Shown piece after piece: positions 3,002-33,080 of a DNA stretch of 64,000 nucleotides. Position 1 is the first letter of the stretch. Every line of letters begins with the position of its first letter. Position numbers and translations under genes: made by a program. This DNA comes from Squalus acanthias. Its lineage: Eukaryota. A model generated the notes under the pieces. That model was not told where the DNA came from and searched no databases. It was given only the letters and a program-made list of their open reading frames with translations. The DNA is taken from NCBI GenBank assembly GCA_030390025.1, contig CM059431.1, forward strand, positions 97,466,001 to 97,530,000, in the 5' to 3' direction.

Positions 3002-4794
3002 AGTGATAAACTGGGATGGGAGTTTCTCTCTTCGGAACTATGGGAAAGTATAAGACTAATCCCAACATAGTCAAGTTTGATCCTGATTTACATTCATGTC
3101 TTACAGGGTAGACTTGTATTAGCCCCCTGAATTCACACGTGGTGATATTACTATGATATTTGACCAGAGCATTTAGATACCGATCCTCTATCCAAGAGGG
3201 AATTTTACCTTCTTCAACCAATCTTAAATTCTCTCGTGCTTGTTCTACTAACCAGGATCCGTACATTATGCACACGTCGTTCTGTGCTGCCTCGGTAGAA
3301 GCATTTCTATCTTCTCTGAATATTGCATTTATTGTTGTGGTGAGAGATTCCAATTGTGTAACTACATCTTGTAAATGTACTTCATGATTTGATCTTCACT
3401 AAGTTCTCGATCCTGATTAGTATTTGTTTCTTGTAAAATTTTCTTGAGCTGTGCTCTCGTATCTTTAATTTGTTTATCCAAAGCGGCTAAATCTAAGCTA
3501 CTTACAAGTGATGTTCCTGTATTAAAGACGGTTGCTGCATCATTTACTAAGCTTCACCTCCCTCTACCATGAGTTTCTCTCCCCTTCGGGTTCCCATAGA
3601 TCTGGTCCTCGTGACAAGACCCATAACTATTACCATTTCTAGCCCAGAAATCATCAACAACTTGTTGCAACAGGTTTCCAAACAAGAGGGTGGTTTTTGG
3701 CTTACAAAATTCCGGTAACCCCATATTTGTTAAATTTATTATGACAGGCACTACCTCGTGATGGATCTTATGGTACAGGATCGTGCGTGTAGGAATAACG
3801 ACTAAACCGTTAGTCGGTCCCTCAGTATGGGTAGGGCAGGGGCTGTCTGGAGAGTGGAGGTTTTCAGGGACACTATCTTTGGGTTTAATTTGTACCTTCA
3901 GTCCTTGTGGATATATGGTATTGATACATTTATTTTCGTATACTGTCTCACATACATATATCCCCGCATCCTTTTGCCAAAAATTTCTCCAACAGAAAAT
4001 TTACATAAGAACATCAGACGTAGGAGCAGGTGTTGGTCATTTGGCCCCTCGAGCCTGCTCTGCCATTCAACAAGATCATGGCTGATCTGATCTTGGCCTC
4101 AACTCCACTTCCCAGCCCGCTTCCCATAACCCTTGACTCCCTTACCTTTCAAAAATCTGTCTATCTCCACCTTGAATATATTCAATGACCCAGCCTCCAC
4201 AGCTCTCTGGGGAAGAGAATTCCAAAGATTCACGACCCTCTGAGAGAAGAAATTCCTCCTCATTTCCGATATAAAAGGGTGTCCCCTTATTCTGAAATTA
4301 TGCCTCCTAGTTCTAGATTCCCCCACGAGGGGAAACATCCTCTCTGCATCTACCCTGTCAAGCCCCTCCAGAATCTTATATGTTTCAATAAGATCCCATC
4401 TCATTTGTTTCATTTCTCTCATGTAAGTGACCACCCCGGTTGTATTAAAATTAGTTTGTGTTTTATTGCTCACATCCTTTCTTAGGAATGTCTTATTGTT
4501 CGATTCACATTCGAGACAGAATCCATTATCTTCTTTCACATATATTACAGTAGCCTGTATGGACCCATTATAACATGCGTTGGCTTCCTCATCTGAAGTC
4601 TGATTACTGTTGGTACTGGTGTCGTGTTGATTCGTGCTCCATCCTCCATCTTTACTGATTATGTGAATTCTTTCGGATGGACCCTCTGTCCCACCCCTTT
4701 GAGTTATTGGACTGGGACCTATGTCGAATCCTTGACTGCAGATTACTACAGTGAATAGCTCAACCACTACTATCAACGACCACCACTTCTTCAT
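3002..4794 (-). pseudogene. env: env of element A: signal peptide, Ig-like segment, furin site, fusion-peptide-like segment and heptad region; interrupted and 3'-truncated
   Basis: Starts MKKWWSLIVVVELFTVVICSQG. RGR*SLVNDAATVFNTGTSLVSSLDL has a TGA that is plausibly CGA by CpG decay. CIMYGSWLVEQARENL...IPSWI aligns with env of element B. Confidence 0.85.
4003..4402 (-). mobile_element. CR1 LINE 3' fragment inserted in env A
   Basis: Encodes MRWDLIETYKIL...FFSQRVVNLWNSLP plus the CR1 3' tail. Flanked by ATTT at 3999-4002 and 4403-4406. Confidence 0.9.
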
Positions 4795-7700
4795 TGCACC
4801 TGCGGTACCGGAGTCTCTTCAGCTTCCTCTTCTTCTTCATCGAGGATCCAAGGCGTACTTCTGACCATGCACATGATGGTCCCAGTCTTCTTAGGCTGCT
4901 TCACCTGTGCTTCTGTAGGTCTAAGCTTCATTTGGTTAATATGAAACCATTTGACTTTTTTAGGCAATTGAACTGCATACACCATAGGACTTGCTTTATC
5001 TACTATACTGTACGGTCCCTTATACAGAGGTTCAAAAACTCCTGCTCTGGCGTAGTTTCTTACCATCACTCGGTCTCTGATGTCCCACTCCTGTGGTTTG
5101 GACGGAATCAACAGGAGCTTTAGATCTTGCCAATTTCAGGTGGCAGCATCCAAGTGAAGCTTTATCAGGGTTTCCCATAAATCTTTCAGGAACTTATCCC
5201 TGGTTACTTCCTTGATTTGCTTTTCGGTGAGACTGGGAAATAACAGATGGGCAGGGATCCGCATAGGTCTCCCTGTCACCAATTCATGTGGAGAATATCC
5301 CGTTTCCTTCGATTCCTTACTCCGGATTCCCATGAGGACCAGGGGAAGCACTTCATCCCATTTAGCATGCTGCTCATTCACTTCTTTTCTAAGGGCTAGT
5401 TTCAAGGTGCGGTTCATCCTCTCTACAATCCCAGATGACTGTGGGTTATGGGCCACAAGCCATTTCCTTTCAATTCCCAACATCTTCAGAGTGGCCTGCA
5501 TTACCTTCCCCGTGAAATGGCTTCCCTGATCTGATTCGACCACCTTCAGTAGTCCCCATCTGGAGAATACTTCCCTGACTAATGTTTTTGCTGTTCCCAA
5601 GGCTGTTGCTGATCTACAAGGGAAGGCCTCCACCCACTTGGTGAAATTGTCTACCAGGACTAAACAATATTTATTTCCCTTCTTGGTGGAGGGTAAGGGT
5701 CTGATAAAATCTATCTGACCGCACTGCCACGGCCCTTCAACACGCCGTGTGTGTCCCAGAGGAGCCTTTCTCTTGTGTGGATCCGGGTTGTTAGCGGCGC
5801 ATATTAGACATCTCTTACAAAAGCTCTCCCCATCCTCTCTGAGGTGCGGCCACCATCCCACTTCGTCTATTCTTTTCCAAGTGGTCTTGGGTCCTGGGTG
5901 TCCTGCCCCTGGGCCTCCATGCGCTAACTGAATAAACTCCTCCTGATACCCTTCCGGCACTATCCACTTGTCTTCTTTAAACAGCATTCCCTCCTTAATT
6001 TCTACCTCTCTGGCTCTGTACGGTCCTTCTACCTCTGACCCTTCCTCTTTCTTTTTTATGACTGCCTTCAGTAGCACATCTTTCAACTGAATAGTTTTAA
6101 GGTCGGGAGGGAGAGGCCCTGTATTTGAGGTATGAGTTGTGACATTCACTATCCCCGATTGATACGGGTTCCAGAAAACTCCTTTCTCTGCACCCTTCCT
6201 GGCCAATTCATCGGCCTTCTGATTACCCTCCCATCGAGTTTGCGTTTTTGAATGGGCTTTTACCTTATGGATGTAATAGGCGTGGCCTGTATCCTATACG
6301 GACGCTAAAATGGTGGCTAACATAGGAGCCGTGGTTAAGGGTTTTCTGTCTGCTGATGTGAACCCCCTTCTCGCTCAGATGGCTCGATGCTCAGTACAAG
6401 AATTACAGATGAACATCGACTCGGAACAGACGGTATACGGAGGGAGAAACTCAACAGGATGCGTGACCACATAGGTCACTGCGGCCAGTTCCGCCTGCTG
6501 GGCACTCAGTGGTGGGAAGGGATATTGCTACTTCAGTTCTCCTCGGTGGATCAGAAAGCCCGCAGCCCGTTTTCCGTTTTCCCCCCTCTACAAAGCTGGA
6601 GCCGTCGACATAAATATCTCGTCCCTCTGGATGGATCCCTGCTCTAAATCCTCCCTCAGTTTCCCAGACACCCTCTATAGTACACGTGTGGGGCTCTCCC
6701 GGGTAGTCGAGGTTAACCGTCAGCTTTGGATGAGTTATTCTTTTTGCCTCGATGCCCCTCTCTTGTAATAACAAAGTCCATCTCGCTATCCCAGCACTAG
6801 ATACCGTCCCTTCTTTGATTCTTCCGCCCAGCAGCAAGCGGATCGGAGTGTGGTGGGTCAGTAACACGAGAGCCTGGGTGCTGGTAAACACCGAAAAATG
6901 CTTCACCGCCCAGAAAGTCGGCAGCAGGTGGCGTTCGCAGCGGGAGAAACCCTTTTCCGCCCCTGGGTGCGATGCCACTGGTCGCAAGGGGCTGTTCGGT
7001 TCCTGCAAAAGGACTGCACTTAAACTGGCACCAGTGGCTGCGGCTTCCGAATAGAAGCCCTTGTTAGGGTCCACTGCTCCCAGAGCTGGGGTGGTCTGTA
7101 AGTCCATTTTCCGTTTAACAAACACCTCTTTGCACTTATCGTCCCATCCCCACTTCACTCCTTTCCTCAATAATCTCAGCAGGGGAGCCACAGTCGCAGC
7201 GTACTCATCTATGAACTCTCGACAGTATCCTGTCAGTCCCAAGAATGATCTGAGGGCTGCCTTTGAACTGCCTTTCTCTTTGCTTCATCTATTGCTCGCT
7301 CCCCAGGTCGAATAGTTAGTCCCAAGAACTGAACCTCCTTCTGTGCCTTCTTAGGATTTACTTTAAAGCCTGCTGTTCGGAGTAGCTCCAATAACTCCCC
7401 GTGCTCCTTCTCGCTCTCAGAGAGCAACAGCAAATCGTTTATGTACTGTATCAGTCGATCTGGATGACTGAAGTCCCGTAGACAATTCGCTATGCTCTGG
7501 TGGAAGATTGAGGGGCTATTATGGAACCCTTGTGGGAGACAGCTCCATGTGTATTGCTGTCCCTTAAAGGTGAAGGTGAATTTGTACTGATCCTCTGGAT
7601 GCAGAGGAATTGACCAGAAACCATTTGAAATGTCTAAAACTGTGAATACCCTGGCAGACCTCAGGGTGTTGCTAGTCAGATCCCCCACTGCAGCCACAGT

Positions 7701-9397
7701 AGGTGCACAAGCAGGGATATTCTTGTCCAGGACTCTATAGCCAATGGTCATTCGCCATGAACCGCCCGGTTTCCTAACCGGCCAAATAGGTGAATTCACA
7801 TCTGTAGCCAAGGGTCTCAAGACTCCCCGATCCAGCAAAGATGTCACCGCCTTTTCCAAGTCCCTCTCTGCCTCCTTTGGGAAGGTATATTGTTTCTGAG
7901 GTCGGGACATAGGCTCTCCTCCTATTCTAACCTGCACTCCCGTCACCCGTCCACAATCATGCTTATGAGTGGCGAAAGCTTCCCTGTTCTCTTCCACTAT
8001 CCGCCTATAACTTTCTGGGGTTCTACTCTTCAAAGTCCGCAGGTCATAGGGTCCCGCTGAGGTTGCCACCCACGCCTCTCCATGGTGAGGTGGGATAACC
8101 AATATTTCATCAGTTTTGTCCACTCCACCCCACAAACAGTTATTGTGCATATCTACAACTATATCGTGTGCCAGTAGCCAATCTGATCCCACTACTACCA
8201 TTCCTGGTTGATCCCAACGCATTAAAATACACGTCCACTTGGTTTGCAGTGACCCGACCTTAAATTTTAAGGGGGAGAAATTCAGTATCGCCCCATTTGG
8301 GGCGCAATTATCGGCCGGGTGAAAAGATTAGCGCCTGGCGCTAATTATCGCCACTGACTGGAAACTTCACTTTTAACGCCCCGGGAGGTGATTGGAGCGC
8401 TAAATCAGGCGCTGCACACCTGTCTTAAGGCGCAAAGGCCGAGGAGTGAGGCGCTAACTCAGAGCGCTGGCGAAGCTCATGTAATGTCAGTCAGCAATGG
8501 AACACACACACAATGGCACGGGCCAGTTCTTAAAGGGGATGGATAATCTTGCTTTCCATCCACATCCTGCTCATTGCAGCCTTGAATCTCGGCCTGGAGA
8601 GACCTGCACATCAAATCTGCTGGAAAGAACAATGGAGAGTACCAGGCAAAGAGCTCAGAGTGCAGCCCCCACAGTCTCTTCTAAATCGATACAAGGAATG
8701 GCAAATCAAAATGAACCTGCAAAGTGCTGCTCAGTACCCAAAACTCCTTCACACAACGTTGAATCTCTCCAGAAGTCTCTCTGACTCTCTCTCAGAATGC
8801 ATAGTTCAAAAATGGCACCAACAATAAAAGGCAGGAAGCGGTCACCTTTAAATAGCGCTCCCCCTTTCCCTTCATGACTGCAGAACGCTCCCCTCAACCT
8901 GTCGTTGCTAGCGTCAGGCGGTAAGGCAGGGGGCGCCACTCAATTTCCGCTCCGGGGCGTTACCGAGGCGTTGCGCACTCGACTGACGTCATGATCTGCC
9001 GGCGCAGGAGATCGTGGCGGTAGTGTTTAGCGCCGCCGCAAAATGTCTAGTTAATTTCGCGAGCGGTGCAAACTTCGCCGCGCCTGGGCGCTAGATGCTT
9101 TGCGCCCCATTAGCGCCCTCTTAAGGCGCTAACGGGAGGCGCAACCAACTGAATTTTTCCCCCTAAGGGTTTGGATACTGCCCCAGCCACTGATTTGCCT
9201 GAAAATCCTTTAAGTACATATAGTTTTCCGGTAGACCATGGGGAAGTGTTGGGAGCAACTGAGTTGACTACTGTACTTGAAGCTCCAGTATCTATTAAGT
9301 AATCCCCTTTCTTCCCCTCTACAACTACATTTACACATGGTCTATTGTACTCGTCGTACCGGAGTGGACACAGGTACTCGGGCTGGGCGCGGCCCCA
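4791..9397 (-). pseudogene. pol: pro-pol of element A (protease, RT, tether RNase H, RNase H, integrase), frameshifted
   Basis: Protease LIDTGASSTV; RT LPQGFHNSPSIF and YIND; tether CERHLL..FWAVKHF; second RNase H IYVDGS...KVKAH...GNQKADELA. Integrase shows H..H..CxxC, IDFI, SDQGSHF, PQSSGIVERMN and GPY. Confidence 0.92.
8271..9163. mobile_element. Non-autonomous PIF/Harbinger-type DNA transposon (MITE) inserted in the protease of element A
   Basis: TIRs GGGGGAGAAATTCAG / CTGAATTTTTCCCCC with a TAA target duplication. Removing it restores the protease frame SKPLKFKVGSL. Confidence 0.88.
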
Positions 9398-11053
9398 TCA
9401 CGCTTGTTCATTGAGCGGCCCCTCACAAGTGGACCTTGCCTTCCTGGTGGGCCTTTTGTTCTTTCATAAATTTGGCTACACATTCCACTAGTTCCTTATA
9501 ACTAGGGCCACTTGGCTCGGAGATGTTCACCCGTTTACTTCCTCCTTCTCGCTCCCTTTTAGGCCTCCTACATTCTCTTACAAAATGGCCCCTTCCTCTA
9601 CAATTATGACAAACCCTTTCATTCATCCCCAGGGCAGGCTTGAAGGGTTTACCCTCCTGCTGCCATTTCCTGGGGGTTCCCCCTTTCATTTCGCACACCT
9701 TCCCTTTGGGCTGACCCACTTCCCGCTTCTCATCTTGACAGGACTCGAATAACCTAGTCATTTTCCGTAACACCTTCTCCTCAGTGTGCTCATCATTGGG
9801 ATCGGACCAGTTTTCCATATGAGCCCTTATATCAGACAAACTATGGCCAGTCAGGGTCCTTAACCGATGATTCAATCCCTTTCCTTCTCATTTTTCTCTC
9901 AGGATCTCTCCCCCTCAGGTTTCATTGTACACTACCCAGAGTCCATCAGCAAACTGCCTCGGCCATTCTTTCGGGCCTTGGGTGGTCAATTCTATCTTTT
10001 GAAAAGGATTTCCTACTTCGGCCCCCAATAATTTCCGTAATTCGCCCACCAATTCCCTCCAGTCTGATTTGCCATTCCTATGGGCCTTCGGGAGTCCCCC
10101 ATAAACGTCAGGTTCTAACGTGAACAATAACAGTCTTTTCTTTTCTTCCTTACTGCAATTTGCCATCGAGGCATGTTGCTCTACTATCATTAGATGGTTT
10201 TCTATCTCTCCTCCCCTACTCAATTTTCCTATTTCCTTCGCTAAACTTTTAAGATCGGTTAGGGAGTACTCCTGATGGTACTGCCTTTCTTCCTCCAGAC
10301 CTCCGTCCCCGGCTGTGTCATACTTATACTTAGTGGTACGGAGGGACACATTCTCCCATCCTCCCTTTCCGTGGTTGCATACGCCAGGGGTCTCCAATGT
10401 TCCCCAGGCGGTCCATAGTCTAACTCCTCTTCCTCATCGCTTACACACTCCAGTGCCATCGCACAGACTATCCCCTTTTTGGCAGACAGTTTCCCCTCTA
10501 ATTCCTTAATTCTTCTTTCACATTCTACATGACTTTCTTTCCCCTTCTTTTCTAGAGCAGACTGGTGGGCCACTCTCACTGCTGCTTTCAAGTCCTCATT
10601 CTGCCTTTCGGCCTTGTCTGCTCTCTCCTTTTGTCTGGACACTTCCTGTTCCCATCTATCACTCAGCTTCTGCCCTTCTAGGTATAGAATTTCAGTGAGC
10701 TGCCGCTCCCTTTCACGCTCCCAGTTTTCTCTTTCCTCACTCAGTTCTTTTAACAATCTGTCGACCACCGCCTCCCGATCGCTAGCCCTTGCATTGTTTT
10801 CCTCGATCTTTTTCCTTAACCGGATCTTTTCACATTCATAATTTTTAAATTGTCTCTGGTATGCCATGAGCCAGACAGCTTTTAGTAAACCAAAGCAGCA
10901 GGTAGTACCCTGCGGCCACTGTTCAGCTTCACAGACTGGATCTTCCCCGTCTACGATCACCCGAACCCAACCTTCTTTCAAAAGTAGCTTCCCTGCTATA
11001 TACTTAGTTATTAGTTCATCCATAGCTTTCTTCTTTGGATTTGGGTGTTTCAT
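9398..11053 (-). pseudogene. gag: gag of element A (three frame-shifted pieces)
   Basis: ORFs 10259-11053 (long coiled coil), 9915-10397 (capsid-like) and 9423-9875 (zinc knuckle CHNCRGRGHFVREC), lying between the PBS and protease. Confidence 0.85.
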
Positions 11054-11074
11054 CTTATTTTCCCTTTACGCAGG

Positions 11075-11091: not shown

Positions 11092-11092
11092 T

Positions 11093-12489: not shown

Positions 12490-15103
12490 TTAAAATTCCC
12501 TCAACCTCTCCTCGTATGTCCACCCCCTCATCCCCGGAATTAACCGAGTGAACCTTCTTTGTACTGCCTCGAGAGCAAGTATGTCTTTTCTTAAGTATGG
12601 ACACCAAAACTGTATGCAGTACTCCAGGTGCGGTCTCACCAATACTCTATACAACTGCAGCAATACCTCCCTGTTTTTATAATCTATCCCCCTAGCAATA
12701 AAAGCCAACATTCCATTGGCTTTCTTGATCACCTGCTGCACCTGCATACTAACTTTTTGATTTTCTTGCACCAAGACCCCCAGATCCCTTTGTACTGCAG
12801 TACTTTCCAGTTTCTCGCCATTAAGATAATAACTTGCTCTCTGATTTTTCCTGCCAAAGTGCATAACCTCACATTTTCCAATACTGTATTGCATCTGCCA
12901 AATCTCTGCCCACTCACCCAGCCTGTCTATATCCCCTTGTAGGTTTTTTATGTCCTCCTCACTCTCTACTTTCCCTCCCATCTTTGTATCATCTGCAAAC
13001 TTTGATATGTTACACTCGGTCCCCTCCTCCAAATCGTTAATATAGATTGTAAAGAGTTGGGGACCCAGCACCGACCCCTGCGGAACACCACTGGCTACTG
13101 GTTGCCAGTCCGAGAATGAACCATTTATCCCAACTCTCTGCTTCCTGTTAGATAACCAATCCTCCACCCATGCCAGAATATTACCCCCAATCCAGTGATT
13201 TTTTATCTTGAGTAATAATCTTTTATGTGACACCTTGTCGAATGCCTTCTGGAAGTCTAAATACACTATGTCCACTGGTTCCCCTTTATCCACCCTGTAC
13301 ATTATATCCTCAAAGAACTCGAGCAAATTTGTTAGACATGACTTCCCCTTCATAAAGCCATGCTGACTTTGTCCTATTAAATTATGTTTATCTAAATGTT
13401 CCGTTACTGTCTCCTTAATAATAGACTCCAAAATTTTACCCACCACAGATGTTAGGCTAACTGGTCTATAATTTCCAGCCTTCTGCCTACAACCCTTTTT
13501 AAATAAGGGTGTTACATTAGCAGTTTTCCAATCTGCCGGGACCTTTGCTGAGTTCAGGGAGTTTTGGAAAATTATTACCAAAGCATCCACAATTCCTACT
13601 GCCACTTCCCTCAAGACACTAGGATGTAAGCCATCAGGTCCAGGGGATTTATCCGCCTTGAGTCCCATTATTTTACTGAGTACCAATTCCTTAGTGATTT
13701 TAATCGTATTTAGCTCCTCCCCCACTAGAGCCCCCTGTTTGTCCAGTGTTGGGATATTCTTAGTGTCCTCTACCGTAAAGACTGAAACAAAATATTTGTT
13801 CAGCATTTTTGCCATCTCCATGTTTCCCACCATTAATTTCCCGGTCTCATCCTCTAAGGGACCTACGTTTGCCTTAACCACCCTTTTTCTTTTTATATAA
13901 CTATAGAAACTCTTGCTATCTGTTTTTATATTTTTTGCTAATTTATTTTCATAGTCTATTTTCCCTTTCTTAATCAATCCTTTAGTTACTTTTTGTTGTC
14001 TTTTGAAGACTTCCCAATCTTCTATCCTCCCACTAACTTTGGATACCTTATATGTCCTTGTTTTTAGTTGGATACTTTCTTTAATTTCTTTACTTAACCA
14101 TGGATGGCTGTCATTTCTTTTACACCCTTTTTTCCTCAGTGGAATATATTTATTTTGAAAGTTGTAAAATAACTCCTTGAATGAACACCACTGCTCATGT
14201 ACCGTCTTAACCTTTAATCTATTTTCCCAGTCCACTTTAATCAATTCTGCTCTCATGCCATCATAGTCTCCTTTATTCAAGCTCAGTATGCTTGTATGAG
14301 AACCAACCTTCTCACCCTCTAATTGGATATGGAATTCAACCATGTTATGGTCACTCATTCCAAGGGGATCCTTAACTAGGACATTATTAATTAATCCAGA
14401 CTCATTACACAGTACCAGGTCCAAGGTTGCTTGCCCCCTTGTAGGATCAGTTACATACTGCTCAAGAAATCCATCCCTAAGACACTCAATAAACTCTTCC
14501 TCAAGGCTGCCCTGCCCAATTTGATTTGTCCAGTTAATATGATAGTTAAAATCCCCCATAATTATAGCTGTTCCCTTATTACATGCCCCAACTATTTCCT
14601 GATTAATACTTCTTCCAACAGAGTTGCAACTATTAGGAGACCTATATACTACGCCCACCAGTGTTTTTTTCCCCTTATTATTCCTTATCTCTACCCAAAC
14701 TGTTTCATTATCCTGATCTTTTGACCCAATATCATTTCTCTGTATTACAGTGATTCCTTCCTTTATTAACATAGCCACCTCCCCCCCCTCCCCTTCCTTC
14801 CTGCCTGTCCTTCCTGATTGTTAAATACCCTGGCATATTTAATTCCCAGACGTTGTCACCCTGCAGCCATGTTTCTGTAATGGCCACAAGATCATATCCA
14901 TACATAGTTATTTGTGCCGTTAACTCATCAATTTTGTTACGAATGCTACGTGCATTCAGATAAAGAACGTTCAAATGTGTTTTGCGACACTTACTTCCTG
15001 CTTTTTCCTTATTTAACACTTTACCTTTTACTCCATACCTTCTGTCCCTTCCTGACATGCTTTCCTCTGTCTCCCTGCTCAGGTTCCCAACCCCCTGCCA
15101 CAT
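12490..15103 (-). pseudogene. CR1 ORF2 (APE endonuclease and RT), one frameshift near 14780
   Basis: [44 protein letters not shown] and FADD; 762 aa remain open. Confidence 0.93.
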
Positions 15104-16042
15104 TAGTTTAAATCCTCCCCAACAGCACTAGCAAACACTCCCCCTAGGACAGCGGTCCCAGCCCTGCCCAGGTGCAGACCGTCCGGTTTGTACTGGTCCC
15201 ACCTCCCCCAGAACCGGTTCCAATGTCCCAGGAATTTGAATCCCTCCCCCTTGCACCATTCCTCTAGCCACGTAGTCATTTGAAATATCCTCCTATTTCT
15301 ACTCTGACTAGCACGTGGCACTGGTAGCAATCCTGAGATTACTACCTTTGAGGTCCTATTTTTTAATTTACCTCCTAACTCCCTATATTCTGCTTTTAGG
15401 ACCTCATCCCCTTTTTTACCTATATCGTTGGTGCCTATGTGCACCACGACAGCTGGCTGTTCGCCCTCCCCCTCCAAAATGTTCTGTAGCCGCTCCGAGA
15501 CGTCCTTGACCCTTGCACCAGGGAGGCAACACACCATCCTGGAGTCTCGGTTGCGGCCGCAGAAACGCCTACCTATTCCCCTTACAATTGAGTCCCCTAT
15601 CACTATAGCTCTTCCACTCTTTTTCCTCCCAGCCTGTGCAGCAGAGCCGCCCATGGTGCCAGGAAGTTGGCTGCTGCTGCCTTCCCCTAAGTCATCCCCC
15701 CCAACAGTATCCAAAGCGGTATATCTGTTTGAGAGGGGGATGGCCACAGGGGACCCCTGCACTACCTGCCTGCACCTCCTACTCTACCTGGTGGTCACCC
15801 ATTCCCTGTACACCCTTCACCTGCGGTGTGACCAACTCACTAAACGTGCTATCCACGAGGTTCTCAGCATCGCGAGTGCTCCAATATGCATCCAGCCGCA
15901 GCTCCAGCGCCGCAATGCAGGCTGTCAGTAGCTGCAGCTGGATACACGTCCCGCACACATGGTCGTCAGGGACACCGGAAGGGTCCCTGATTTCCCACAT
16001 AGAGCAGGAGGAGCACAACACGGGGCTGGGCTGTCCTGCCAT
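15103..16042 (-). pseudogene. CR1 ORF1 (zinc finger/leucine zipper plus SGNH esterase), frameshift near 15770
   Basis: CSSC...CGTC followed by a heptad segment; GDS, GTND and DGLH esterase blocks. Confidence 0.9.
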
Positions 16043-16327
16043 GACTTACCCTTTAATTAATTGAACTTTAATTAAATCAAATCAATACCACCAATTTCAC
16101 TCAATTAAATGAATTACTCAAGGGCCCTTGGTTACTAGCACTAGAAATTATAATCACAAAATTAAGATCTTCGAAACTTTATAAACTATGAACCTTAACT
16201 ATCAAACTATAAAGTAGTATAAATACTAACCTGCCGTACTCACCCAATCAGCCGCTCCCTCCAGCCCACGTCACGTTTTGAATCGTAACGTGGCTCTGGA
16301 ACGCTGCCGCCGGTCTGAGATTGGTAA

Positions 16328-16679
16328 ACCTCTGCAAACAAAAGCCCGCGAAAGTGAGTTTAGATACTCACCGGGCCTCGGCTCTCTCCGCCCCCGACAC
16401 CAGCCTCTGTAAACAAAAGCCCGCGAAAGTGAGTTTAGATACTCACCGGGCCTCGGCTCTCTCTGCTCCCGACAGCAGCCTCTGCAAACAAAAGCCCGCG
16501 AAAGTGAGTTTAGATACTCACCGGGCCTCGGCTCTCTCCGCCCCCGACACCAGCCTCTGTAAACAAAAGCCCGCGAAAGTGAGTTTAGATACTCACCGGG
16601 CCTCGGCTCTCTCTGCTCCCGACAGCAGCCTCTGCAAACAAAAGCCCGCGAAAGTGAGTTTAGATACTCACTGGGCCTC
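16328..16679. repeat. 75-bp tandem repeat (about 4.7 units, alternating A/B variants) in the CR1 5' UTR
   Basis: AAAGCCCGCG recurs at 16341, 16416, 16491, 16566 and 16641. Confidence 0.95.
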
Positions 16680-16749
16680 CTGATATACACTCACCCCCTT
16701 TAGGTTAGAGGAGGTGGAAGGGTGTTGTGCGACTTCTCACATTGGAAGA

Positions 16750-17620: not shown

Positions 17621-17621
17621 T

Positions 17622-19457: not shown

Positions 19458-19469
19458 CGGGTAGTTATT

Positions 19470-21669: not shown

Positions 21670-22080
21670 TGACCAACCAACACCACCACCACCAACCAAC
21701 CAACCCCCCTGACCTCCCCAACCAAACCCTCCCCCCAACCAACACCCCCACCTCCCCAACCAAACCCTCCCCCCAACCAACCCCCTCCCCTGAACCAACC
21801 CCCTCCCCTGAACCAACCCCCTCCCCTGAACCAACCCCCTCCCCTGAACCAACCCCCTCCCCTGAACCAACCCCCTCCCCTGAACCAACCCCCTCCCCTG
21901 AACCAACCCCCTCCCCTGAACCAACCCCCTCCCCTGAACCAACCCCCTCCCCTGAACCAACCCCCTCCCCTGAACCAACCCCCTCCCCTGAACCAACCCC
22001 CTCCCCTGAACCAACTCCCTCCCCCTGAACCAACCCCCTCCCCCCAACCAACCCCCTACCCCACCCCAAACCAACCCCAT
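21670..22080. repeat. 18-bp C-rich minisatellite (CCCCTCCCCTGAACCAAC)n with degenerate flanks
   Basis: About 14 near-perfect units over 21781-22040. Confidence 0.95.
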
Positions 22081-22295
22081 CAAAAACTGAGTAACTGGTC
22101 ATTCATCTTTTCACTATTTAAGAAACGTTTTGTGTGCAAACTGGCTGCTGCATTTGCTTACAGCAGAGACTGCTCCTTAAAAGTAATCTATTGATTTCAA
22201 GGTTATATGGGACACCCTAATATTGTGATTTTCTGCGATAATTATTTTAATAAAATACAATGCTTGTATTTCTATGGTGCTTCTCACTAGGGGTT

Positions 22296-25200
22296 ACTCA
22301 CAGAATCATAGAAATTTACGACACAGAAGGAGGCCATTTGGCCCATCGTGTCTGTACCGGTCAAAAAAGAGCCATCCAGCCTAATCCCACTTTCCAGCTC
22401 TTGGTCCGTAGCCTTGCAGGTTACAACACTTTTATCCAAGCATATCCAAGTACTTTTTAAATGCGGTGAGGGTTAGTCATAGAGTTATACAGCACGGATA
22501 GAGGCCCTTCGGCCCATCGTGTCCGCGCCGGCCATCAAGCCCTGTCTAATCTAATCCCATATTCCAGCATTTGGTCCGTAGCCTTGTATGCTATGGCATT
22601 TCAAGTGCTCATCCAAATGCTTCTTGAATGTTGTGAGGGTTCCTGCCTCCACAACCCTTTCAGGCAGTGAGTTCCAGACTCCAACCACCCTCTGGGTGAA
22701 AAAGTTCTTTCTCAAATCCCTTCTAAACCTCCCGCCCTTTACCTTGAATCTATGACCCCTTGTTATAGACCCCTCTACTAAGGAAAAAAGCTCCTTAGTA
22801 TCCATCCTATCTATGCCCCTCATAATTTTGTACACCTCAATCATGTCCCCCCTCAGTCTCCTCTGCTCCAAGGAAAACAAACCCAATCTGCCCAGTCTCT
22901 CTTCATAGCTGAAGCACTCCAGCCCGGGTAACATTCTGGTGAATCTCCTCTGCACCCTCTCCAAAGCGATCACATCCTTCCTGTAGTGTGGCGACCAGAA
23001 CTGCACACAGTATTCCAGATGTGGCCTAACCAGTGTTTTATACAGCTCCATCATAACCTCCTTGCTCTTATATTCTATGCCTCAGCTAATGAATGCAAGT
23101 ATCCCATATGCCTTTTTTACCACCTTATCCACCTGTTCCGTCGCCTTCAGGGATCTGTGTACTTGCACACCAAGATCCCTCTGACCCTCCGTCTTGCCTA
23201 GGGTCTTACCATTCATTGTGTATTCCCTTGCCTTGTTAGTCCCTCCAAAGTGCATCACCTCGCACTTTTCCGGATTAAATTCCATTTGCCACTGTTCCGC
23301 CCATCTGACCAACCCATCTATATCGTCCTGCAGACTGAGGCTACCCTCCTCGCTATTTACCACCCTACCAATTTTTGTATCATCCGCGAACATACTGATC
23401 ATACCTCTTACATTCATATCCAAGTCGTTAATGTAGACCACAAACAGCAAGGGACCCAGCACCGATCCCTGTGGTACCCCACTGGCCACAGGCTTCCAGT
23501 CACAAAAACAACCTTTGACCACCACCCTCTGCCTTCTGCCACTGAGCCAGTTTTGTATCCAATGTGCCAAGGCACCCTGGATTCCATGGGCTCTTACCTT
23601 CTTGACCAGTCTCCTGTGCGGGACTTTATCGAAGGCCTTACTGAAATCCATGTATACCACATCCACTGCGTTACCCTCATCCACACACCTAGTCACCCCC
23701 TCAAAAAATTCAATCAAATTAGTCAGACATGATCTTCCCTTGACAAAGCCATGTTGGCTAACCCTGATTAATCCTTGCCTCTCCAAGTGGAGACTGATTT
23801 TGTCCCTCAGAATTTTTTCCAATAATTTTCCTACCACTGATGTTAGGCTCACTGGCCTGTAGTTCCCCGGTTTTTCCCTACTCCCTTTCTTGAATAATGG
23901 TACTACATTAGCGGTTCTGCCTCTACCACCCTTTCAGGAAGTGAGTTCCAGACCCCTACCACCCTCTGGGTGAAAAAGGTTCTCCTCAACTCCCCTCTGA
24001 TCCTTCTACCAATTACCTTAAATCTATGCCCCCTGGTTATTAACCACTCTCCAAAGGGAAATAGGTCCTTCCTATCCACTCCATCTAGGCCCCTCATAAT
24101 TTTATACACCTCAATCAAGTCTCCCCTCAACCTTCTCTGTTCCAAAGAAAACAACCCCTATATCATTGCAGTAAAACGTCTTTACTCTTATACTCAAATC
24201 CTCTTGTAATAAAGGCAAACATATCATTTGCTTTCCTAATTGCTTGCTGCATTGCTGTGCCTGCATGTTAACTTTCAGTGATTCGTGTACAAGGACACCC
24301 AGGTCCTTTTGAACACCAATATTTTCCAATCTTTCGCCATTTAAAAAATACTCTGCTTTTCTATTTTTCCTACCAAAGTGGATAACTTCACATTTCTCCG
24401 CATTATATTACATTTGCCATGTTCTTGCCCACTCACTTAGCCTGTCTATATCCCCTTGAAGCCTCTTTGCATCCTCCTCACAACTTACATTCCCACCTAA
24501 CTTTGTATCATCAGCAAACTTGGATATATTACATTTGGTCCCCTCATCCAAATCATTGATACAGATTGTGAATAGCTGAGGCCCAAGCACTGATCCTTGC
24601 GGTACCCCACTAGTTACAGCCTGCCAACCCGAAAATGACCCGTTTATTCCTACTCTCTGTTTTCTGTCCGTTAACCAATCCTCAATTCATGCTAGTATAT
24701 TACCCCCAATCCCATGAGCCCTAATTTTGTTTAATAACCTCTTGTGTGGCACCTTATCGAATGCCTTCTGAAAATCCAAATACACCACATCCACTGGTTC
24801 CCCTCATCTATTCTGCTAGTTACAACCTCAAAAAACTCTAACAGATTCATCAAACATGATTTCCCTTTCATAAATCCGTGTTGACTCTGCCCAATCCTAT
24901 TATTATTTTCTAAGTGCCCTGTTACCACATCCTTAATAATAGATTCTAGCATTTTCCCTACTACTGATGTCAGGCTAACTGGTCTGTAGTTCCCCATTTT
25001 CTCTCTCCCTCCTTTCTTAAATAGTGGGGTTACATTTGCTACCTTCCAATCTGCGGGAACCGTTCTAGAATCATTGGAATTTTGGAAAATGACAACCAAT
25101 GCAGCCACTATCTCTATAGCCACCTCTTTTAAAACCCTAGGATGTAGGCCATCAGGTCCAGGGGATTTATCAGCTTTCAGTCCAATTAATTTCTCCAGTA

Positions 25201-26150
25201 CTATTTTTTTACTAATACTAATTTCTTTCAGTTCCTCATTCTTGCTAGACCCTTGGTTCACCACTATTTCCGGGAGGTTTATTGCGTCTTCTTCCGTGAA
25301 GACAGACACAAAGTATTTGTTTAATTTCTCTGCCATTTCCTTATTCCCCATTATCATTTCTCCTGTCTCAGCCTATAAGGGACCCACGTTTACTTTAGCT
25401 AATCTTTTCCTTTTTGCATACCTATAGAAGCTTTTACAGTCTGTTTTTATGTCTCTTGCTAGTTTACTCTCATATTCTATTTTCCCTTTCTTTATCAATT
25501 TTTTGGTCCTCCTTTGCTGGAAAGGAATAAAGGAAAGTATCCCATATGCCTTGTTAACTGCCTTATCTATCTGTCCTGCTACCTTCAGGGATCTGTGGAC
25601 ATGCACTCCAAGGTCCTTCTGTTCCTCTACACTTCTCAGTATCCTACCAGATATTGTGTTTTCCCTTGCCTGGTTAGACCTCCCCAAATGCATTACCTCA
25701 CACTTCTCTGGATTGAATTCCATTTGCCACTTTTCTGCCCACCTGACCAGTCCATTGATATCTTCCTGCAGTCTACAGCTTTCTTCCTCACTATCAACCA
25801 CACGGCCAATTTTTGTATCATCTGCAAATTGCTTAATCATGCCCTCTACATTTGGCTAAATCATTGATATATACACCACAAAAAGCAAGGGACCTAGTAC
25901 TGAGCCCTGCGGAACCCCACTGGAACAGCCTTCCAGTCAGAAAAACACTCGTCCATCATTACCCCTTGCTTCCTGCCACTGAGCTAATTTTGGATCCAAC
26001 TTGCCACTTTCCCTTGGATCTCATGGGCTCTTACTTTTCTGACCAGTCTGCCATGTAGGACCTTGTCAAAAGCCTTGCTAAAATCCATGTAGACAACATC
26101 ACACACTCTTCCTTCATCGACCCTCCTTGTTACCTCCTCAAAAAATTCAG
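22296..26150 (-). mobile_element. Stack of at least five 5'-truncated or fragmentary CR1 copies (about 22296-22470, 22477-23902, 23903-24158, 24160-25520, 25525-26150)
   Basis: Repeated CR1 RT and C-terminal motifs (QHGF, DF.KAFDKV, FADD, FFTQRVV.VWNSLP) and ATAGA-type tails. Confidence 0.9.
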
Positions 26151-27646: not shown

Positions 27647-28455
27647 ACGTCTCATTTGCTCACGTTTTTGTAGAAACAAATATTCAATTCTAACTGAGAA
27701 ATATCTGCAACACAGATACATTGAGCCCAGAAAAATGGGGCATTTCAAAATTTACAGTGCTTGCAATTGGTTAAAACACTGGATAATCCCAGAATGTGCA
27801 GCAATTGACGTCTACCTTGCCCAAAAATGCTCGTAGCCCTGCCCTGCACTAGGTTCCACTCGCCCATCATCCCCCTCCTCACTGACCAACATTGGCTCCC
27901 GATCCCCAAACACATTCAATATTTTTTTTTTCATTTGTTTTTATCGGATGTGAGCGTCGCTGGCAAGGCCGGCATTTATTGCCCATCCCTAATTGCCCTT
28001 GAGAAGGTGGTGGTGAGCCGCCTTCTTGAACCGCTGCAGTCCGTGTGGTGAAAGTGCTCCCACAGTGCTGTTAGGGAGGGAGTTCCAGGATTTGGACCCA
28101 GTGACGATGAAGGATCGGCGATATACTTTTAAGTCAGGATGGTGTGTGACTTGGAGGGGAACTTGGAGGTGGTGGTGTTCCCATGCACTTGCTGACTTGT
28201 CCTTCTAGGTGGTAGAGGTCGCGGGTTTGGGCGGTGCTGCCGAAGAAGCCTTGGCAAGTTGCTGCAGTGCATCTTGTAGATGGTACACACTGCAGCCACA
28301 GTACGCCAGTGGTGGAGGGAGTGGATGTTTAAGGTGGTGGATGGGGTGCCAATGAAGCGGGCTGCTTTGTCCTGGATAGTGTCGAGCTTCTTGAGTGTTG
28401 TTGGAGCTGCACTCATCCAGGCAAGTGGAGAGTATTCCATCACACTCCTGACTTG

Positions 28456-29678
28456 TGTTGTGGGATTTCTCTCTGCCCCAAAGCAGATGGAGACGAGCGT
28501 GTCCTGGTTCCCAGTGATCTTTATTCAAGCTCGTGCAGGGAGAGGCCCTCTCAGTCTGGGCTGAGATGGGAGACGAATTTTTACATTCGAGCAGTTGGCT
28601 TATATACAATCTTACATCTTGTTTCCTTCACATCTTCGGGACTTGGCCAATTAATTGTCCAAGTCATGTACACTTAATCACATCTCCACAAAACACATCG
28701 GGGAAGAAATTCGGTTGCTTTGCGCCTCACGTTAGTGCCCTCTTGGGCGCTAACGGGGCGCAAAGCAACTAGCGCCCGGGCGCGGCGCCGCCAATGCCTC
28801 CCGTGAAATTCAGCGGGAGATTAGCGGTGGCGGTAACCGTCAGCACCCCATGGTGCTGCGCCACAGGCAATGACGTCATCGCCGTGCACAGCTCCCCGCT
28901 CGCGCCCCGGCCGCAATCTTCGGTAGTGCCCCCTGACTTACCACCGGACGCTATGTCCAACGGTGTCAGATGGGCCTACCTGCGGCCGGGGCAGCGTAAT
29001 TAAAGGCGAGGTGCCGGGCGGCCATTTTTGTTGCTGGCTGCTTGCCAGCACCTGCCTCCGTTGCCGTCCCTGACCTCCTGAGCACCCCCCCCCCCACCCC
29101 CGGCGGAGTGCCAGCTGTGCTCCATGAGCCCAGCACTTCTCCTGAGTGCCGAGCTCTTTTGCCGGCACTCCGATCCCCGGTGGCCCAGCTGGGCCCCGGG
29201 TCGCACTGCGCAAGGCCCCTCCCCTTTAAGAAGGGGAGGAAGGCCTGCAGTACCGCGGCGCAATGTGCACCCTAAGAGGGAGGCGGGGCGCTTCCAGTAG
29301 CGCCCCACTTCCCTCTTGGGGCGCTACCGATGAATTTCGGCCGCGGGGCGCTAATTTTTTTGCGACGCTAAAAGTAGCGCCCCAGCGAAGTTAGCGCCCC
29401 AGAGGGGGCGCGACTCAATTTTTCCCCCATCTTGTTTATCTCATTTGCCCTGTTTCCACATCTGCCATTGTTCTATCCAATTTACGTACACTTAACCACA
29501 TCTTCGCAAATCACATCTTGGCGGCCCATTGTTCAATGTATGGCCTCCTTGCCTTCTTTTACTCCCCCAATCATCGTGTAATATGCTTTTTCCAACTGTC
29601 CTTGTTCTGCCAGACTTCTCCTTTATTACATCAGCCAGCTAGTCAGTTAAGCCGCTAATCTAACTTTTAATTCCTTCA
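28456..29678 (-). repeat. 3' LTR of element B (contains a MITE)
   Basis: Matches 35369-35858 once 28700-29431 is removed. Confidence 0.95.
28700..29428. mobile_element. Harbinger-type MITE in the 3' LTR of element B
   Basis: Termini GGGGAAGAAATT / AATTTTTCCCCC with an ATC TSD. The empty site CACATCTTG is visible in the other LTR. Confidence 0.9.
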
Positions 29679-29690
29679 GTCCCCCTTTTT
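29679..29690 (-). promoter_or_regulatory. Polypurine tract of element B
   Basis: AAAAAGGGGGAC immediately precedes the 3' LTR start TGAAGG. Confidence 0.85.
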
Positions 29691-29879
29691 GGCCTTTGGT
29701 GATAGCCCAAGATGGCCAACTAACTTCACCTGCCCATGCTCCTCACCACATCACTGCTGGCCAGGCAGGTGGTTGGATTCGCACGGGTGTGGCTACTTAA
29801 ACTACCTCTTACATTCCCTGCTTCTCTACCAATCTATACTGTGTTTTAACAACAGTTTTAGCAATGGTTCGGTTACGGC

Positions 29880-32800
29880 GTCATTTACATCGAGTACAAT
29901 ATTCAAACATAAGTATGGTGACAATTAGCAACTGCACCACCACCAATACATGAGATGTAATTCTGATCCAGGGGTGAATGTCCACCCTAATACCCCAGTC
30001 CCAAAGTGTCTGCCAGCATGAGGCATCTTCCAGCTTGGCCTCCACATCCTTCCCCAGTTGTTTGACCTCCTGCTCAATTCGGTGATACTGCTTAATTATC
30101 GCCCCGGCCTCTTTCCTCAGTTCCAGTAGGTGTTCTGGTAGTTTCGGGATGTCATTCCCCTCAGGGAGTACATTATTCGAGCATGCTGTCCTTTAGGTCC
30201 TCAGTTGGACTCGCCCGTTCCTCGTGGGATGACCATCGGTAGGTTATGGTTGCATGTCCGATCGTTGTTGGGGCCTGGGGGCAGAAGCAGAAACTTGAGC
30301 TGGTCACTGGGCACCGGATGTTACCATACTGGTATTGGGATTCACTGGTGGTCACACAGTATTCTCCTTTTCCCCGGTGTGCTGCTTGCATTGACTCATG
30401 GTGGGCACTGGAAATTTCAAGGGTACAATTTAGGGTGGTGTTGAAGCCGTGAAAGGATATTTACTAGTCCTAGCCCCTTTAGGGCTACCCCGGATCAGGC
30501 GTATATCTCAGACGTTCACTTTCAACTAAAGTTTGAGGTAGCCGAATCCTAAAGACTCTTAATTGGGTCTGAAGGTCCGGGCTATCTCTTCCTAAAGCAA
30601 AGGAACAACCCGAGAATGTTACCGTCCTCCAGATAGTGCTTCTAATAAGTTTAGCTAGACTGTAACATCCCGGATATTATGAGGGTTCGGAAACCTCCCT
30701 CAGAATTCTGTAACTCTTCACCAAAGAGTGTACAGAGATTTAGTTTGCGAGTTTTTGATACAGAAGACTTATGTGAGACAATTCTAAAAATATATAGAGA
30801 TTTATTAAAGAACCGACATGCAATTTACAGTTGGTGAATCAGTCAATCGCAACATTAACAATTCTAAAAAGAGAAAAAATACCATCTTATTATTAACAGG
30901 GAATCTTACTTTTAAATCTTAACTTCGCTACAGTATTACTGTTCTTAAAGTTTTCTATACAGGATATCCATCAATATCAAATACCTTTGATCCCCGAGGT
31001 ACAAAGAGTGGTAGACCACAGAGCTGCCTCTGTAGCCAAGAATCGCTTTGCTCGATTAAAGCGAGTCTGATATCCCATTTGAAACTTCAATATTTATACC
31101 CTTTTCCAGTGGTATTTCCTTTAAAGTTTCTGCTGATGCAAGTTAATTATCCCTATTCATCTTTCTGCCGACCTCTGCAATTCTTAATGCTACATCAGCC
31201 AGAATCTTGTCTCATCTCCAGGTGTTCTAGGGTCACCATATAAAACGGTGTGAAAGGCAGGCGTTCCTTATTTTGTCATCTTTACAAGGGCAGATGTTCC
31301 TTATCTTATGTGCCATATTTACGAAGTTTAAATTAGAACACCTTATCCAGGGTGAACCATTGTTTTTGTTCCCAAAGGTCAGCCTGTCAGAGCCGTGCAC
31401 CTTCAGTTTCAATAAGGTTATTTATTCAGGGTCAACAACTGTCTTATCTCAATAGCCAGAATTCTTTCATAGCTATTTCATAGTTAGGTTTCTAAATTTC
31501 CAAACCCAGTTTGTCATGTTTTAATAAGGCCAGAATTCTTTCATAAGATAGTGTGTTTTTCTGAATAGGTTATATGGCTTATTCCTTCACAGCTTCACAT
31601 GGCTCCTGGCCCTGTCCCCACAGGATGTGGGCAGACTACGTTACTCCCCCTTTCTCTGCATCTCTCTAACAAGATCCCCGTCAAGAAGGAACCTTTCTGG
31701 GTTGCATAAGTGGGTGCGTGGTGGTACCTGAGCCAATTGCCATCTCTTATGATCCTGACATTCTCTACCTCGTAGAGGGGCTTGGATACCCTTTTCTGCA
31801 GACTGGGTATAGCTATCAGCCTCAGGTGAGTGGTAACACAATGTGTAGTTGTCGGGTAGACCTTTATAAGTCCTCGTAGGGTGCACAAAGAGCAACTGCC
31901 GCTCTCTGGCGCCCAGTCTTGCAGTGCGCTATCCATAATCCAATCCGGCACATCTCTATTGTGGAGCTGTGCTAGATTATGTCGCACCTCCCCCACTAGC
32001 CATGCCCCATAGGCCACGCACATTCGTTCCCTAGAGGCCTGATTGGTTACGTTATGCAGGGTGGCGGTGACGTGGTTAACTGTATGGGCATGGCTTTTCC
32101 AAAACTTGCACTTACTCTAATAGGGTTTTAGCCAAGTCTTTTCCAGTCTGTCCCTGATGTCCCTCCAAATTATTTGCCTTTAACATGAGGTCCCTTAGTT
32201 TGGATGTTAAATGATTCACCTTGCTATCGATTTCTGCTATATCCAGGGAATTAACTGTGGATGCCCCTGCACTGTAAGCAGTGGCTATGTCATTTACCAG
32301 GTTCCTCTTGCGGCGAGATAGGCTCGACCGCACGCGTCCCCCAGAGGCCCGGAGGGCATCAGTAACTATCATGTCGAGGAGCCGATGGTAAAACGACCTT
32401 GTACGCCATTCGCAACATTTGGGTAACCCCATCTGGCTAATATTGAGGACAACCAAACCTATCTCATGGTGTACATTCTCAAATAAGCACCTATCAGAAT
32501 CTCGGATCACGAGCCCCCCTTTGGGTCCCGAGCTATGCTGCGGACACCTCAAGGGTTCCTCCGTAGTCAAAGTGGTGGGCTTCAGGGCTCCTGTTACTGG
32601 GGTGGTCGGTGTGGTGGTGGGAGTATCCCGGGGGTTCAGCTTCCAACACCAATCATCAGAGTTGGTGCACTTGGAGGTTGGGCATAGTTCCCACCCTCCT
32701 TCTTCCTGCTGGGGTACCCCGGACATCTGAGTGAAATCTCTCCCACATCTTACTTGCATAGTTTCTCCCTGTACGCATGTTAATGTATCATCACTCTTCT

Positions 32801-33080
32801 TCCCGAAGCATACCGTGCTCATGTTTGTCCATTTAACAGCCATCCCCGTGTTACCCCTATCCCCTGTATCACCTGGCTTCTTGTCAAATATGCTTACACC
32901 CGTTAACCCGGAGCTACAATTTAAATACACTGTTTTATCAACTGTGACAGTTAACACCACACGTTCCCGATCGCAACTGATGTCGCTTGAGTTCTTGTAA
33001 TACAGGCCTCGTTGCTCCCTTCGGTCGACTGATGTGGCTCCTTCTGTGGTTGCCGTGGCCAGGCATATCAGTAAGGTCAT
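29880..33080 (-). pseudogene. env: env of element B, split by a solo LTR
   Basis: Signal-like start MTLLICLATATTEG, a Thr/Pro-rich stalk, RRKR/NLVNDIATAYSAGASTVNSLDI, a heptad region, and Cys-rich NVVCP...GFN...NC...YCVTT...FCFCP. A TM-like HVLVVVQLLIVTILMF lies near 29900-29955. Confidence 0.88.
30449..31591 (-). mobile_element. Probable solo LTR inserted in env B
   Basis: Interrupts env between ..EPC and GFN.., with inverted termini GTGAA/TTCAC, minus-strand AATAAA near 30800 and TATA near 31095. TSD unclear. Confidence 0.65.

Follow-up and report, generated by a model that had tools for sequence, protein, structure and literature searches.

The 64,000 nucleotides (nt) of Squalus acanthias DNA analysed here (assembly GCA_030390025.1, contig CM059431.1, positions 97,466,001 to 97,530,000; hereafter the window) hold two retrovirus-derived elements with related envelope genes, raising the question of what kind of envelope protein (Env) these genes encode and from which retroviral lineage their carriers descend. 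Both genes lie on the minus strand, env A at 4794-3000 within element A (about 11065 to 3000) and env B at 33080-29884 within element B (Table 1). The answer that we regard as probable is that two canonical-type endogenous retroviruses (ERVs), integrated independently and long dead, left env genes belonging to two branches of one family from sharks, skates and a frog, having an immunoglobulin (Ig)-like head and a fusion core that resembles the fusion protein (F) of paramyxoviruses. The interval 3002-33080, bordered by the end of env A and the env B start codon, was rejected as one feature or a single composite element; about 17 kb of long interspersed nuclear elements (LINEs) and repeats lie between the proviruses, and most of the interval is unrelated LINE and repeat DNA.

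That two distinct proviruses share one envelope family had been proposed in an earlier note on this DNA, where twelve motif strings were quoted from the two genes. All twelve are present in the sequence, on the minus strand, and when the env B frames were compared with the entire window by tblastn, env A was returned with E values of 5.1e-21 (31% identity over 139 amino acids (aa)) and 1.2e-14 (32% over 87 aa), and nothing besides env A; at the level of sequence, this match is far beyond chance. The envelopes are 30% identical across 252 aligned positions and the integrases 39% identical across 153 aa, in agreement with two distinct proviruses. In addition, a hidden Markov model (HMM) built from six database Env proteins only, with no window pieces, matches all seven window env pieces in colinear order, with E values from 4e-35 to 4.5e-10. 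The pairing of the cleavage sites was likewise borne out, as RRKR precedes the NLVND block in env B and a degenerate site, RGR followed by an in-frame TGA (3554-3556), stands at the same place in env A. The post-furin part of env B (32303-29884) is indeed long with a Cys-rich middle, comprising about 424 codons without a 1146-bp insert and 16 cysteines in its three later pieces, and the CX6CC motif is absent, as claimed, from eight window env pieces and six long family members.

Regarding the relatives, a profile of 133 positions over the F2-like, fusion-peptide and first heptad-repeat (HRA) region of env A and env B, run with HMMER on 1.84 billion representative proteins, returned 16 proteins at E<=1e-3, seven of them at E<=1e-10. 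Ten of the 16 were looked up, nine being from cartilaginous fishes (sharks and skates) and one, P0013, from the frog Pelodytes ibericus. The nine, listed as "uncharacterized" or "hypothetical", belong to Chiloscyllium punctatum, C. plagiosum, Scyliorhinus torazame (two), Mustelus asterias, Rhinoraja longicauda, Pristiophorus japonicus (two) and Heterodontus francisci, and an additional intact S. torazame member, P0017, lies beyond the 16. No Pfam model was matched by any member of the Env family, word-indexed protein searches with env B gave no match, a PDB phmmer search with env B alone gave a chance match only, and scans of viral contigs with the element A reverse transcriptase (RT), P0009 and P0013 gave no relative.

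Three members are apparently complete: P0009 (739 aa), P0017 (754 aa) and P0013 (723 aa). The intact layout, of 720-750 residues, opens with a signal or leader peptide and an Ig V-like domain, to which a Thr/Pro-rich linker is sometimes added. An F2-like block (about 90 residues, two conserved cysteines) comes next, followed by an R-x-K/R-R furin site, the fusion peptide, a long HRA, a core in which about 250 residues include ten conserved cysteines, a second heptad repeat (HRB), the membrane anchor and a tail of small size. P0009 has its furin site at 271-274, its HRA-like and HRB-like heptads at 291-360 and 593-654, and its anchor at 688-706, the conserved part having two cysteines before the cleavage site and ten after it. 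The frog P0013 has an N-terminal membrane segment at 25-43, REKR at 62-65 and its main site, RSKR, at 269-272. A FastTree phylogeny of the 14 rows left after five short ones had been dropped (P0007, P0008, P0011, P0012 and P0015) placed env A with P0010, P0001 and P0003 (support 0.76) and env B with P0005, P0004, P0014, P0002 and P0006 (support 0.93), the frog protein with P0009 and P0017 forming a third branch and P0016 a fourth.

The likeness to F comes from family profiles compared with all 177,635 distinct sequences of the Protein Data Bank (PDB). Profile A6 (19 rows) had seven matches at E<=10, six of them being paramyxovirus F0 or fusion glycoproteins (best 0.079) and the seventh a chance match (1.9), while A7 (12 rows) had six, led by three F0 proteins at 0.0092, 0.0092 and 0.015. 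Positions 320-539 of A7 run colinear with F residues 257-472, which is the β-rich core (domains I-II) through HRB, and the second piece of env B is the region aligning with F0 residues from about 257 on. In a sub-threshold first stretch of both profiles, the pre-cleavage Cys, cleavage site, fusion peptide and HRA align to F in order, and the post-fusion F chain 1ztm was matched at E 0.55 by profile A8, which holds the members with an Ig-like N-terminus. Bar chance matches, paramyxovirus F0 and its kin are the only solved proteins matched by profiles A6 and A7; at E<=10, these searches gave no retroviral transmembrane subunit (TM), baculovirus F, filovirus GP2, haemagglutinin, spike or foamy virus Env. 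The comparison with F, retroviral TM and baculovirus F that the earlier note had put forward was therefore answered, at borderline E values, by paramyxovirus F0 as the best match.

Moreover, the F-type order of landmarks, from a short Cys-bearing N-terminal subunit to the anchor, was found in the family alignment, in P0009, P0017 and P0013, and in the window pieces, and the block of about 90 residues before cleavage together with a subunit of about 450 residues after it gives F-like proportions. This order and the post-cleavage part of about 450 residues are what the family has in common with paramyxovirus and pneumovirus F (PF00523; 6mjz, 8v5k, 1ztm). Unlike paramyxovirus F, however, the shark family falls below the PF00523 gathering score, carries an Ig V-like domain before the F2-like block and is encoded by a retrovirus-borne gene; attachment is probably built into this Env and not left to a separate HN, H or G protein. 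As for the gamma-type Env (TLV_coat, CX6CC, immunosuppressive domain), the likeness lies in a furin-cleaved class I retroviral glycoprotein and in the gamma/epsilon-like RT motifs of the carriers, but the shark family has neither CX6CC nor a TLV_coat match and its post-cleavage subunit is more than twice as long. A gamma-type Env was rejected on the missing CX6CC and the long post-cleavage subunit, and among the window pieces and relatives scanned, no match to Pfam TLV_coat or Foamy_virus_ENV was obtained.

The N-terminal Ig-like domain of both envelopes was missed by the earlier reading. Profile A8 had 46 PDB matches at E<=1, of which 44 are Ig-superfamily proteins by name, among them a single-chain Fv (6.8e-5), the CRTAM V domain (1e-3), shark IgNAR, JAM-A, CD8 and VEGFR2. 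With the frog P0013 alone, each of the 50 matches at E<=10 bears the name of an antibody heavy chain, the best having an E value of 0.0049. As seen in the alignment, the B-strand Cys, C-strand Trp and F-strand G-x-x-x-C columns are present in both window copies, the domain being split by a LINE tail in env A and followed by a Thr/Pro-rich linker in env B. Fernandez et al. (PMC11468914) consider F as a minimal scaffold, to which receptor-binding modules are added N-terminally, as in the coronavirus spike, or between the subunits, as in foamy viruses. By this analogy, the shark Env family would be a retroviral example of the N-terminal-module arrangement, adding a new module order in which an Ig-like head precedes the minimal F core, in parallel to coronavirus spikes. 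In the clade of P0005, P0002, P0004 and P0014, a seemingly different Cys-rich N-terminal domain replaces the Ig-like one; if true, head domains would have been exchanged while the fusion core was conserved.

If paramyxovirus F and the foamy virus Env are taken as models, the Env precursor would trimerise and be cut by furin, the Ig-like head would bind a cell-surface partner, HRA would extend so that the fusion peptide inserts, and HRB would fold back into a six-helix bundle, merging the membranes. Neither window copy can carry out fusion, as both genes are broken. The env A copy is dead, interrupted by an inserted LINE tail and a stop codon, shifted in frame and truncated at its 3' end; it breaks off at 3000, so its 3' half is lost and profile positions 384-654 are missing. 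Env B is complete in profile coverage yet broken by two frame changes, near 32115 and near 30190, and by the 1146-bp repeat. When contigs of four public runs were compared with env B, the word depth in three runs was about 1e5 over the insert and about 1e3 over the env sequence on either side, and in each of two runs one contig joins the env B flanks directly across it. This depth and these joining contigs indicate that a very abundant repeat landed in this env B and that insert-free copies exist. The insert has no open reading frame (ORF), no clear terminal repeats and no Rfam match. Single-letter length differences among the copies sit near both frame breaks of env B. No RNA run is listed as containing env B, and a run presumed to be RNA covered it thinly, which does not bear on expression.

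Regarding the carriers, element A has a gag with one CX2CX4HX4C zinc knuckle (Pfam zf-CCHC, E 3.3e-4) and a pol matching RVT_1 (1.2e-26), RT_RNaseH_2 (3.6e-10), Integrase_H2C2 (4.5e-15) and rve (1.9e-14), with a second RNase H that gives a weak RNase_H match (0.0064), below cut-off. The catalytic YxDD box of its RT reads YIND. Its closest solved relatives are the foamy virus protease-RT (5e-40) and the integrase of prototype foamy virus (PFV; 6e-30), and the RT scores 141 bits with the foamy virus, 126 with the gamma-type and 92 with the Ty3 protein among solved proteins; Ty3/Gypsy was rejected for element A by these bit scores and by its dual RNase H. The RT carries LPQGF (as LPQGF.NSP), which also occurs in foamy and gamma-type RTs, and QY(V/I)xDLLL, while its polymerase box and the preceding stretch resemble the gamma-type RT 8wus. 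By such motifs, element A is a canonical-type retrovirus. That it is epsilon-like is a guess, made because epsilon-type ERVs have been reported from sharks in PMC4422223. No long terminal repeat (LTR) of element A was found within the window. Its gag is preceded upstream by a LINE, and where env A breaks off, a further element with an RT begins the flanking DNA; because these adjoin both sides, the ends of element A may lie outside the window. This latter neighbour, at 2-2248 (minus strand), is a 749-aa open frame that continues past the window edge; it has a YIDD box, matches RVT_1 weakly (1.7e-5) and is a different retroelement, to which pieces at 51865-52416 and 51749-51881 are related.

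Element B is bounded by LTRs and retains a gag fragment, RNase H, integrase and env only, with no remaining protease or RT. It matches Pfam RNase_H (1.5e-7) and rve (4.4e-7), its integrase matches PFV integrase at 6e-15, and its gag fragment has a short motif in common with the element A gag. The CAAG on both sides is a 4-bp target duplication, and the LTR pair, the polypurine tract and the CAAG flanking both ends indicate a real integration. The LTRs differ at 20 of 490 positions (Kimura two-parameter distance 0.042), which gives roughly 10 million years at a mammal-like rate and about 95 million years at the ten-fold slower elephant-shark rate assumed by Han (PMC4422223). Rfam and tRNA scans of the element region gave no match. 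Over about 260 bp, the insert that splits the 3' LTR (28700-29427) matches, at 71% and in inverted orientation, a repeat at 8909-9172, between gag and pol of element A, and it also resembles 46720-47120; a dispersed repeat has hit both proviruses.

Several results weigh against the reading of two canonical-type ERVs with an F-like, Ig-headed Env. In Pfam, PF00523 was not matched by six window pieces at E<=10, by 14 relatives at E<=1 or by four long members at E<=0.001, and the 133-position profile found no viral F and no loki Env among the 1.84 billion proteins. The F0 E values are borderline and come from profiles of 12-19 sequences that include the window's own pieces; the F-likeness of the family is supported at this borderline sequence level, from sequence and not from a fold. 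One language-model search gave only leads below 0.9 that mix Fusion_gly, Baculo_F, Hemagglutinin and TLV_coat, and another gave none. No Ig-like domain is matched in Pfam by env A or env B alone, its assignment in both being made by alignment with relatives. As for the carriers, pol of element A was assigned by motifs, bit scores and by-eye identity counts, not by a tree. By eye, the integrases are about 49% (71/146, A) and 48% (58/121, B) identical to one lokiretrovirus consensus, and that of element A is 33% (47/142) identical to PFV integrase; these counts lean to a loki or a gamma/epsilon type, neither of which has a solved full-length representative to compare. In a further explanation, this Env would be a separate class I fusion protein and its likeness to F and to the loki Env would be convergence or chance in coiled-coil and Cys-rich sequence. 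E values of 0.009-0.08 are not decisive, there is no Pfam match, the language-model leads span several families at similar scores, and class I proteins that are unrelated to one another also have heptad repeats and furin sites. Nevertheless, this seems to us quite unlikely, as the scoring stretch is the β-rich domain I/II region and not a coiled coil, F0 tops three differently composed profiles (A6 and A7, and 1ztm with A8), the order and spacing of the landmarks agree, and no other class I family appears at E<=10.

The remaining alternatives concern the lineage. The earlier note had taken the Env for a shark branch of an F-like loki envelope family, and both elements might then be lokiretroviruses or their shark sister group, which we regard as unlikely. 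In the parts of the loki paper and its supplement at hand (Wang and Han 2020, PMC7947760), the loki Env, matching PF00523 at 2.2e-7, is also a retroelement-borne F-like Env with an RXKR site, and by eye the ectodomain motifs of its consensus are colinear with the shark family: a G-I-V-L strand, the furin site, an N-S-hydrophobic run after the fusion peptide, GRIPxYL, LPII..IYK, WVCPS and CGLQP, the last being exact in the frog protein and occurring twice in the loki supplement. The 48-49% integrase identities to the loki consensus also exceed the 39% between A and B, and element A has a dual RNase H, as in loki; this arrangement of a tether and a new RNase H, to which the matches of elements A and B correspond, is common to canonical retroviruses as well. 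However, the RT of element A reads LPQGF where all 19 loki RTs in that part of the published alignment read PFGY, and its polymerase-site box is gamma-like; by-eye identity is about 37% to a loki RT and about 38% to the foamy virus RT and, taken together with the integrase counts, favours no one lineage. The element A Gag has a zinc knuckle, none being visible in four loki Gag consensus passages of that source. The loki Env has its F2-like strand directly after the signal peptide and no Ig-like head, and HMMER found no link between the two Env families; the shark-family strings GRYC, IPPL and WWD are absent from the portion of loki text searched, and the primer-binding-site-like 18-mer of element B does not occur in the available supplement text. 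In the same source, loki elements were reported in none of six cartilaginous-fish genomes (Carcharhiniformes 1, Orectolobiformes 3, Rajiformes 1, Chimaeriformes 1), yet three of the species in that screen carry this Env family, and no protein of a teleost or lamprey, the loki hosts, is among the ten relatives looked up. Of the earlier proposal, the F-likeness stood, at the borderline level given above, whereas the lokiretrovirus assignment was not supported, element A being no lokiretrovirus by its RT motifs; from their sequences, we infer that the shark and loki Envs may be sisters or cousins within an F-like superfamily.

It has also been considered whether the elements are foamy-like ERVs (FLERVs) of a shark-frog lineage, the Env being theirs, to which we give only a slim chance. 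Foamy virus proteins are the closest solved relatives of the element A RT and of both integrases, with PFV integrase being the nearest for the latter; in RT bit score, however, foamy leads gamma-type by a small margin, and no gamma/epsilon-type integrase core exists in the PDB to compete. Shark and frog hosts match the FLERV pairing, in which env went undetected in Callorhinchus and Xenopus (PMC5512871), and element B has the 4-bp duplication. The foamy virus Env is itself retroviral with an F-like fusion core (class Ib of Fernandez et al. 2024, PMC11468914), and its two furin sites and N-terminal membrane-spanning leader recur in the frog P0013. Its receptor-binding domain, however, lies inside the N-terminal subunit, unlike the extra domain of the shark family at the N-terminus, and HMMER found no similarity between the two at E<=10. 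The carriers differ in their hallmarks too: foamy viruses and fish foamy-like ERVs have, according to PMC5210030, a Gag without a Cys-His box and GGGTG at the junction of polypurine tract and LTR, whereas the element A Gag has such a box and the element B junction lacks GGGTG. In element B, the env stop is followed by the LTR after only about 200 bases, a space too small for accessory genes. The element A protease matches RVP, and neither the foamy protease nor the foamy Env family of Pfam was matched.

F-type Envs were already known in two reverse-transcribing lineages of vertebrates, lokiretroviruses (by sequence, 2020, in PMC7947760) and foamy viruses (by structure, 2024, in PMC11468914), to which the carriers described here would add a third group. 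What appears to be new is this Env family, its Ig-like head, its hosts and its association with a canonical-type pol and Gag. Literature searches, with J Virol papers on foamy viruses of cartilaginous fishes (2023) and on foamy virus spread (2021) outside their scope, returned no description of it, and surveys of shark ERVs had reported no detectable Env domain (PMC10699275; PMC5512871). As the origin of retroviral env genes is still debated, the family contributes carriers that look ordinary by Gag, protease and RT motifs, and a host class, the cartilaginous fishes, where lokiretroviruses were reported absent and surveys detected no Env domain. In addition, "uncharacterized" shark and frog proteins gain an identity, and the intact members are flagged for expression and structure solution.

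P0009 of C. punctatum and P0017 of S. torazame, from different shark orders, are identical at 630 of 734 positions (86%) with no gap, which suggests either a domesticated env gene under selection or a recent spread across species. A wider proposal, which we hold as doubtful, is that this is the Env of a deep undescribed gamma/epsilon-like lineage of cartilaginous fishes and amphibians, its head perhaps being a host-captured Ig V domain and at least one member apparently being kept as a host gene, the latter because of the gapless likeness of P0009 and P0017. If true, three deep retroviral branches would bear an F-type Env, favouring the view that retroviruses had one F-type Env from their root, which was later replaced in most orthoretroviruses; independent acquisitions are preferred in PMC9040795.

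Table 1. Features of elements A and B in the window; E values and profile positions refer to the six-protein HMM.
Feature	Position	Strand	Remarks
Element A gag	9423..11065	-	three frame pieces: 10259-11065, 9915-10433, 9423-9887
Element A protease, N-terminal half	9110..9397	-	DTG active-site motif; Pfam RVP PF00077 21.4 bits, cut-off 20.7
Element A pol	5136..8327	-	RT 7233-8327; tether and RNase H 6451-7284; RNase H end and integrase 5136-6293
Env A start	4406..4794	-	signal peptide and first half of Ig-like domain; ATG at 4794; aligned with the Ig B-strand Cys column of relatives
LINE 3'-tail fragment in env A	4001..4405	-	matches four further LINE tails of the window at 70-74% (blastn); tblastn of ORF residues 124-238
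Env A second Ig-like half and F2-like block	3557..4000	-	E 6.3e-24, positions 90-192
Env A fusion peptide/HRA piece	3553-3365	-	E 4.5e-10, positions 202-255
Env A Cys-containing core	3395-3000	-	E 9e-27, positions 259-383; frame change near 3400 precedes
Env A motif CPTHTEGP	3838-3815	-	
Env A motif HHEVVPVI	3763-3740	-	
Env A motif SLVNDAAT	3553-3530	-	
Env A motif CIMYGSW	3272-3252	-	
Env A motif IPSWI	3203-3189	-	
Env A motif CEFRGLI	3137-3117	-	
Element B 5' LTR	35369..35858	-	TG...CA; CAAG adjoining at 35859-35862; blastn 95.5%/96.0% to 3' LTR halves
Element B primer-binding-site-like 18-mer	35348..35365	-	three bases past 5' LTR; unique in window
Element B gag fragment, RNase H and integrase	33180..35102	-	34551-35102, 33814-34620, 33180-34016
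Env B piece 1	32115..33080	-	signal peptide, Ig-like domain, Thr/Pro-rich linker, F2-like block from 32546, RRKR (32315-32304), fusion peptide from 32303, HRA start; ATG at 33080; E 4.2e-35, positions 23-253
Env B piece 2	31598..32116	-	other frame; HRA end and Cys-rich core (domain III/I-like); E 1.3e-34, positions 269-433
High-copy repeat inserted in env B	30450..31595	-	1146 bp
Env B piece 3	30460-30176	-	domain II-like Cys cluster; E 4.9e-21, positions 442-509
Env B piece 4	30192-29884	-	HRB, 19-residue membrane anchor, short tail; stop 29881-29883; E 6.7e-12, positions 533-615
Env B motif CPQHSSGP	32546-32523	-	
Env B motif HHEIGLVV	32471-32448	-	
Env B motif NLVNDIAT	32303-32280	-	
Env B motif CVAYGAW	32020-32000	-	
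Env B motif VPDWI	31951-31937	-	
Env B motif CTLRGLI	31885-31865	-	
Element B polypurine tract	29690-29679	-	directly before 3' LTR
Element B 3' LTR	29678-29428 + 28699-28456	-	two halves, split by insert of ~730 bp (28700-29427); CAAG at 28455-28452

Among the annotated relatives, the sawshark model P0003, named "protein Niban 1-like", has about 250 N-terminal residues of the Env family (profile positions 114-294) followed by unrelated sequence, and it is probably, judging from this composition, an annotation chimera of an ERV fragment and a host gene. Elsewhere in the window, a LINE at 12490-15783 (minus strand) encodes an apurinic-type endonuclease and RT, with an upstream ORF bearing a GDSL-lipase/esterase domain, and many LINE fragments lie at 22551-26150, 47126-47932 and 54613-60243, at least eight diverged copies or tails filling much of the window. 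Tandem arrays at 49199-49924, 21672-22103 and 16254-16703, with periods of 33, 18 and 75 bases, respectively, give long spurious ORFs on both strands.

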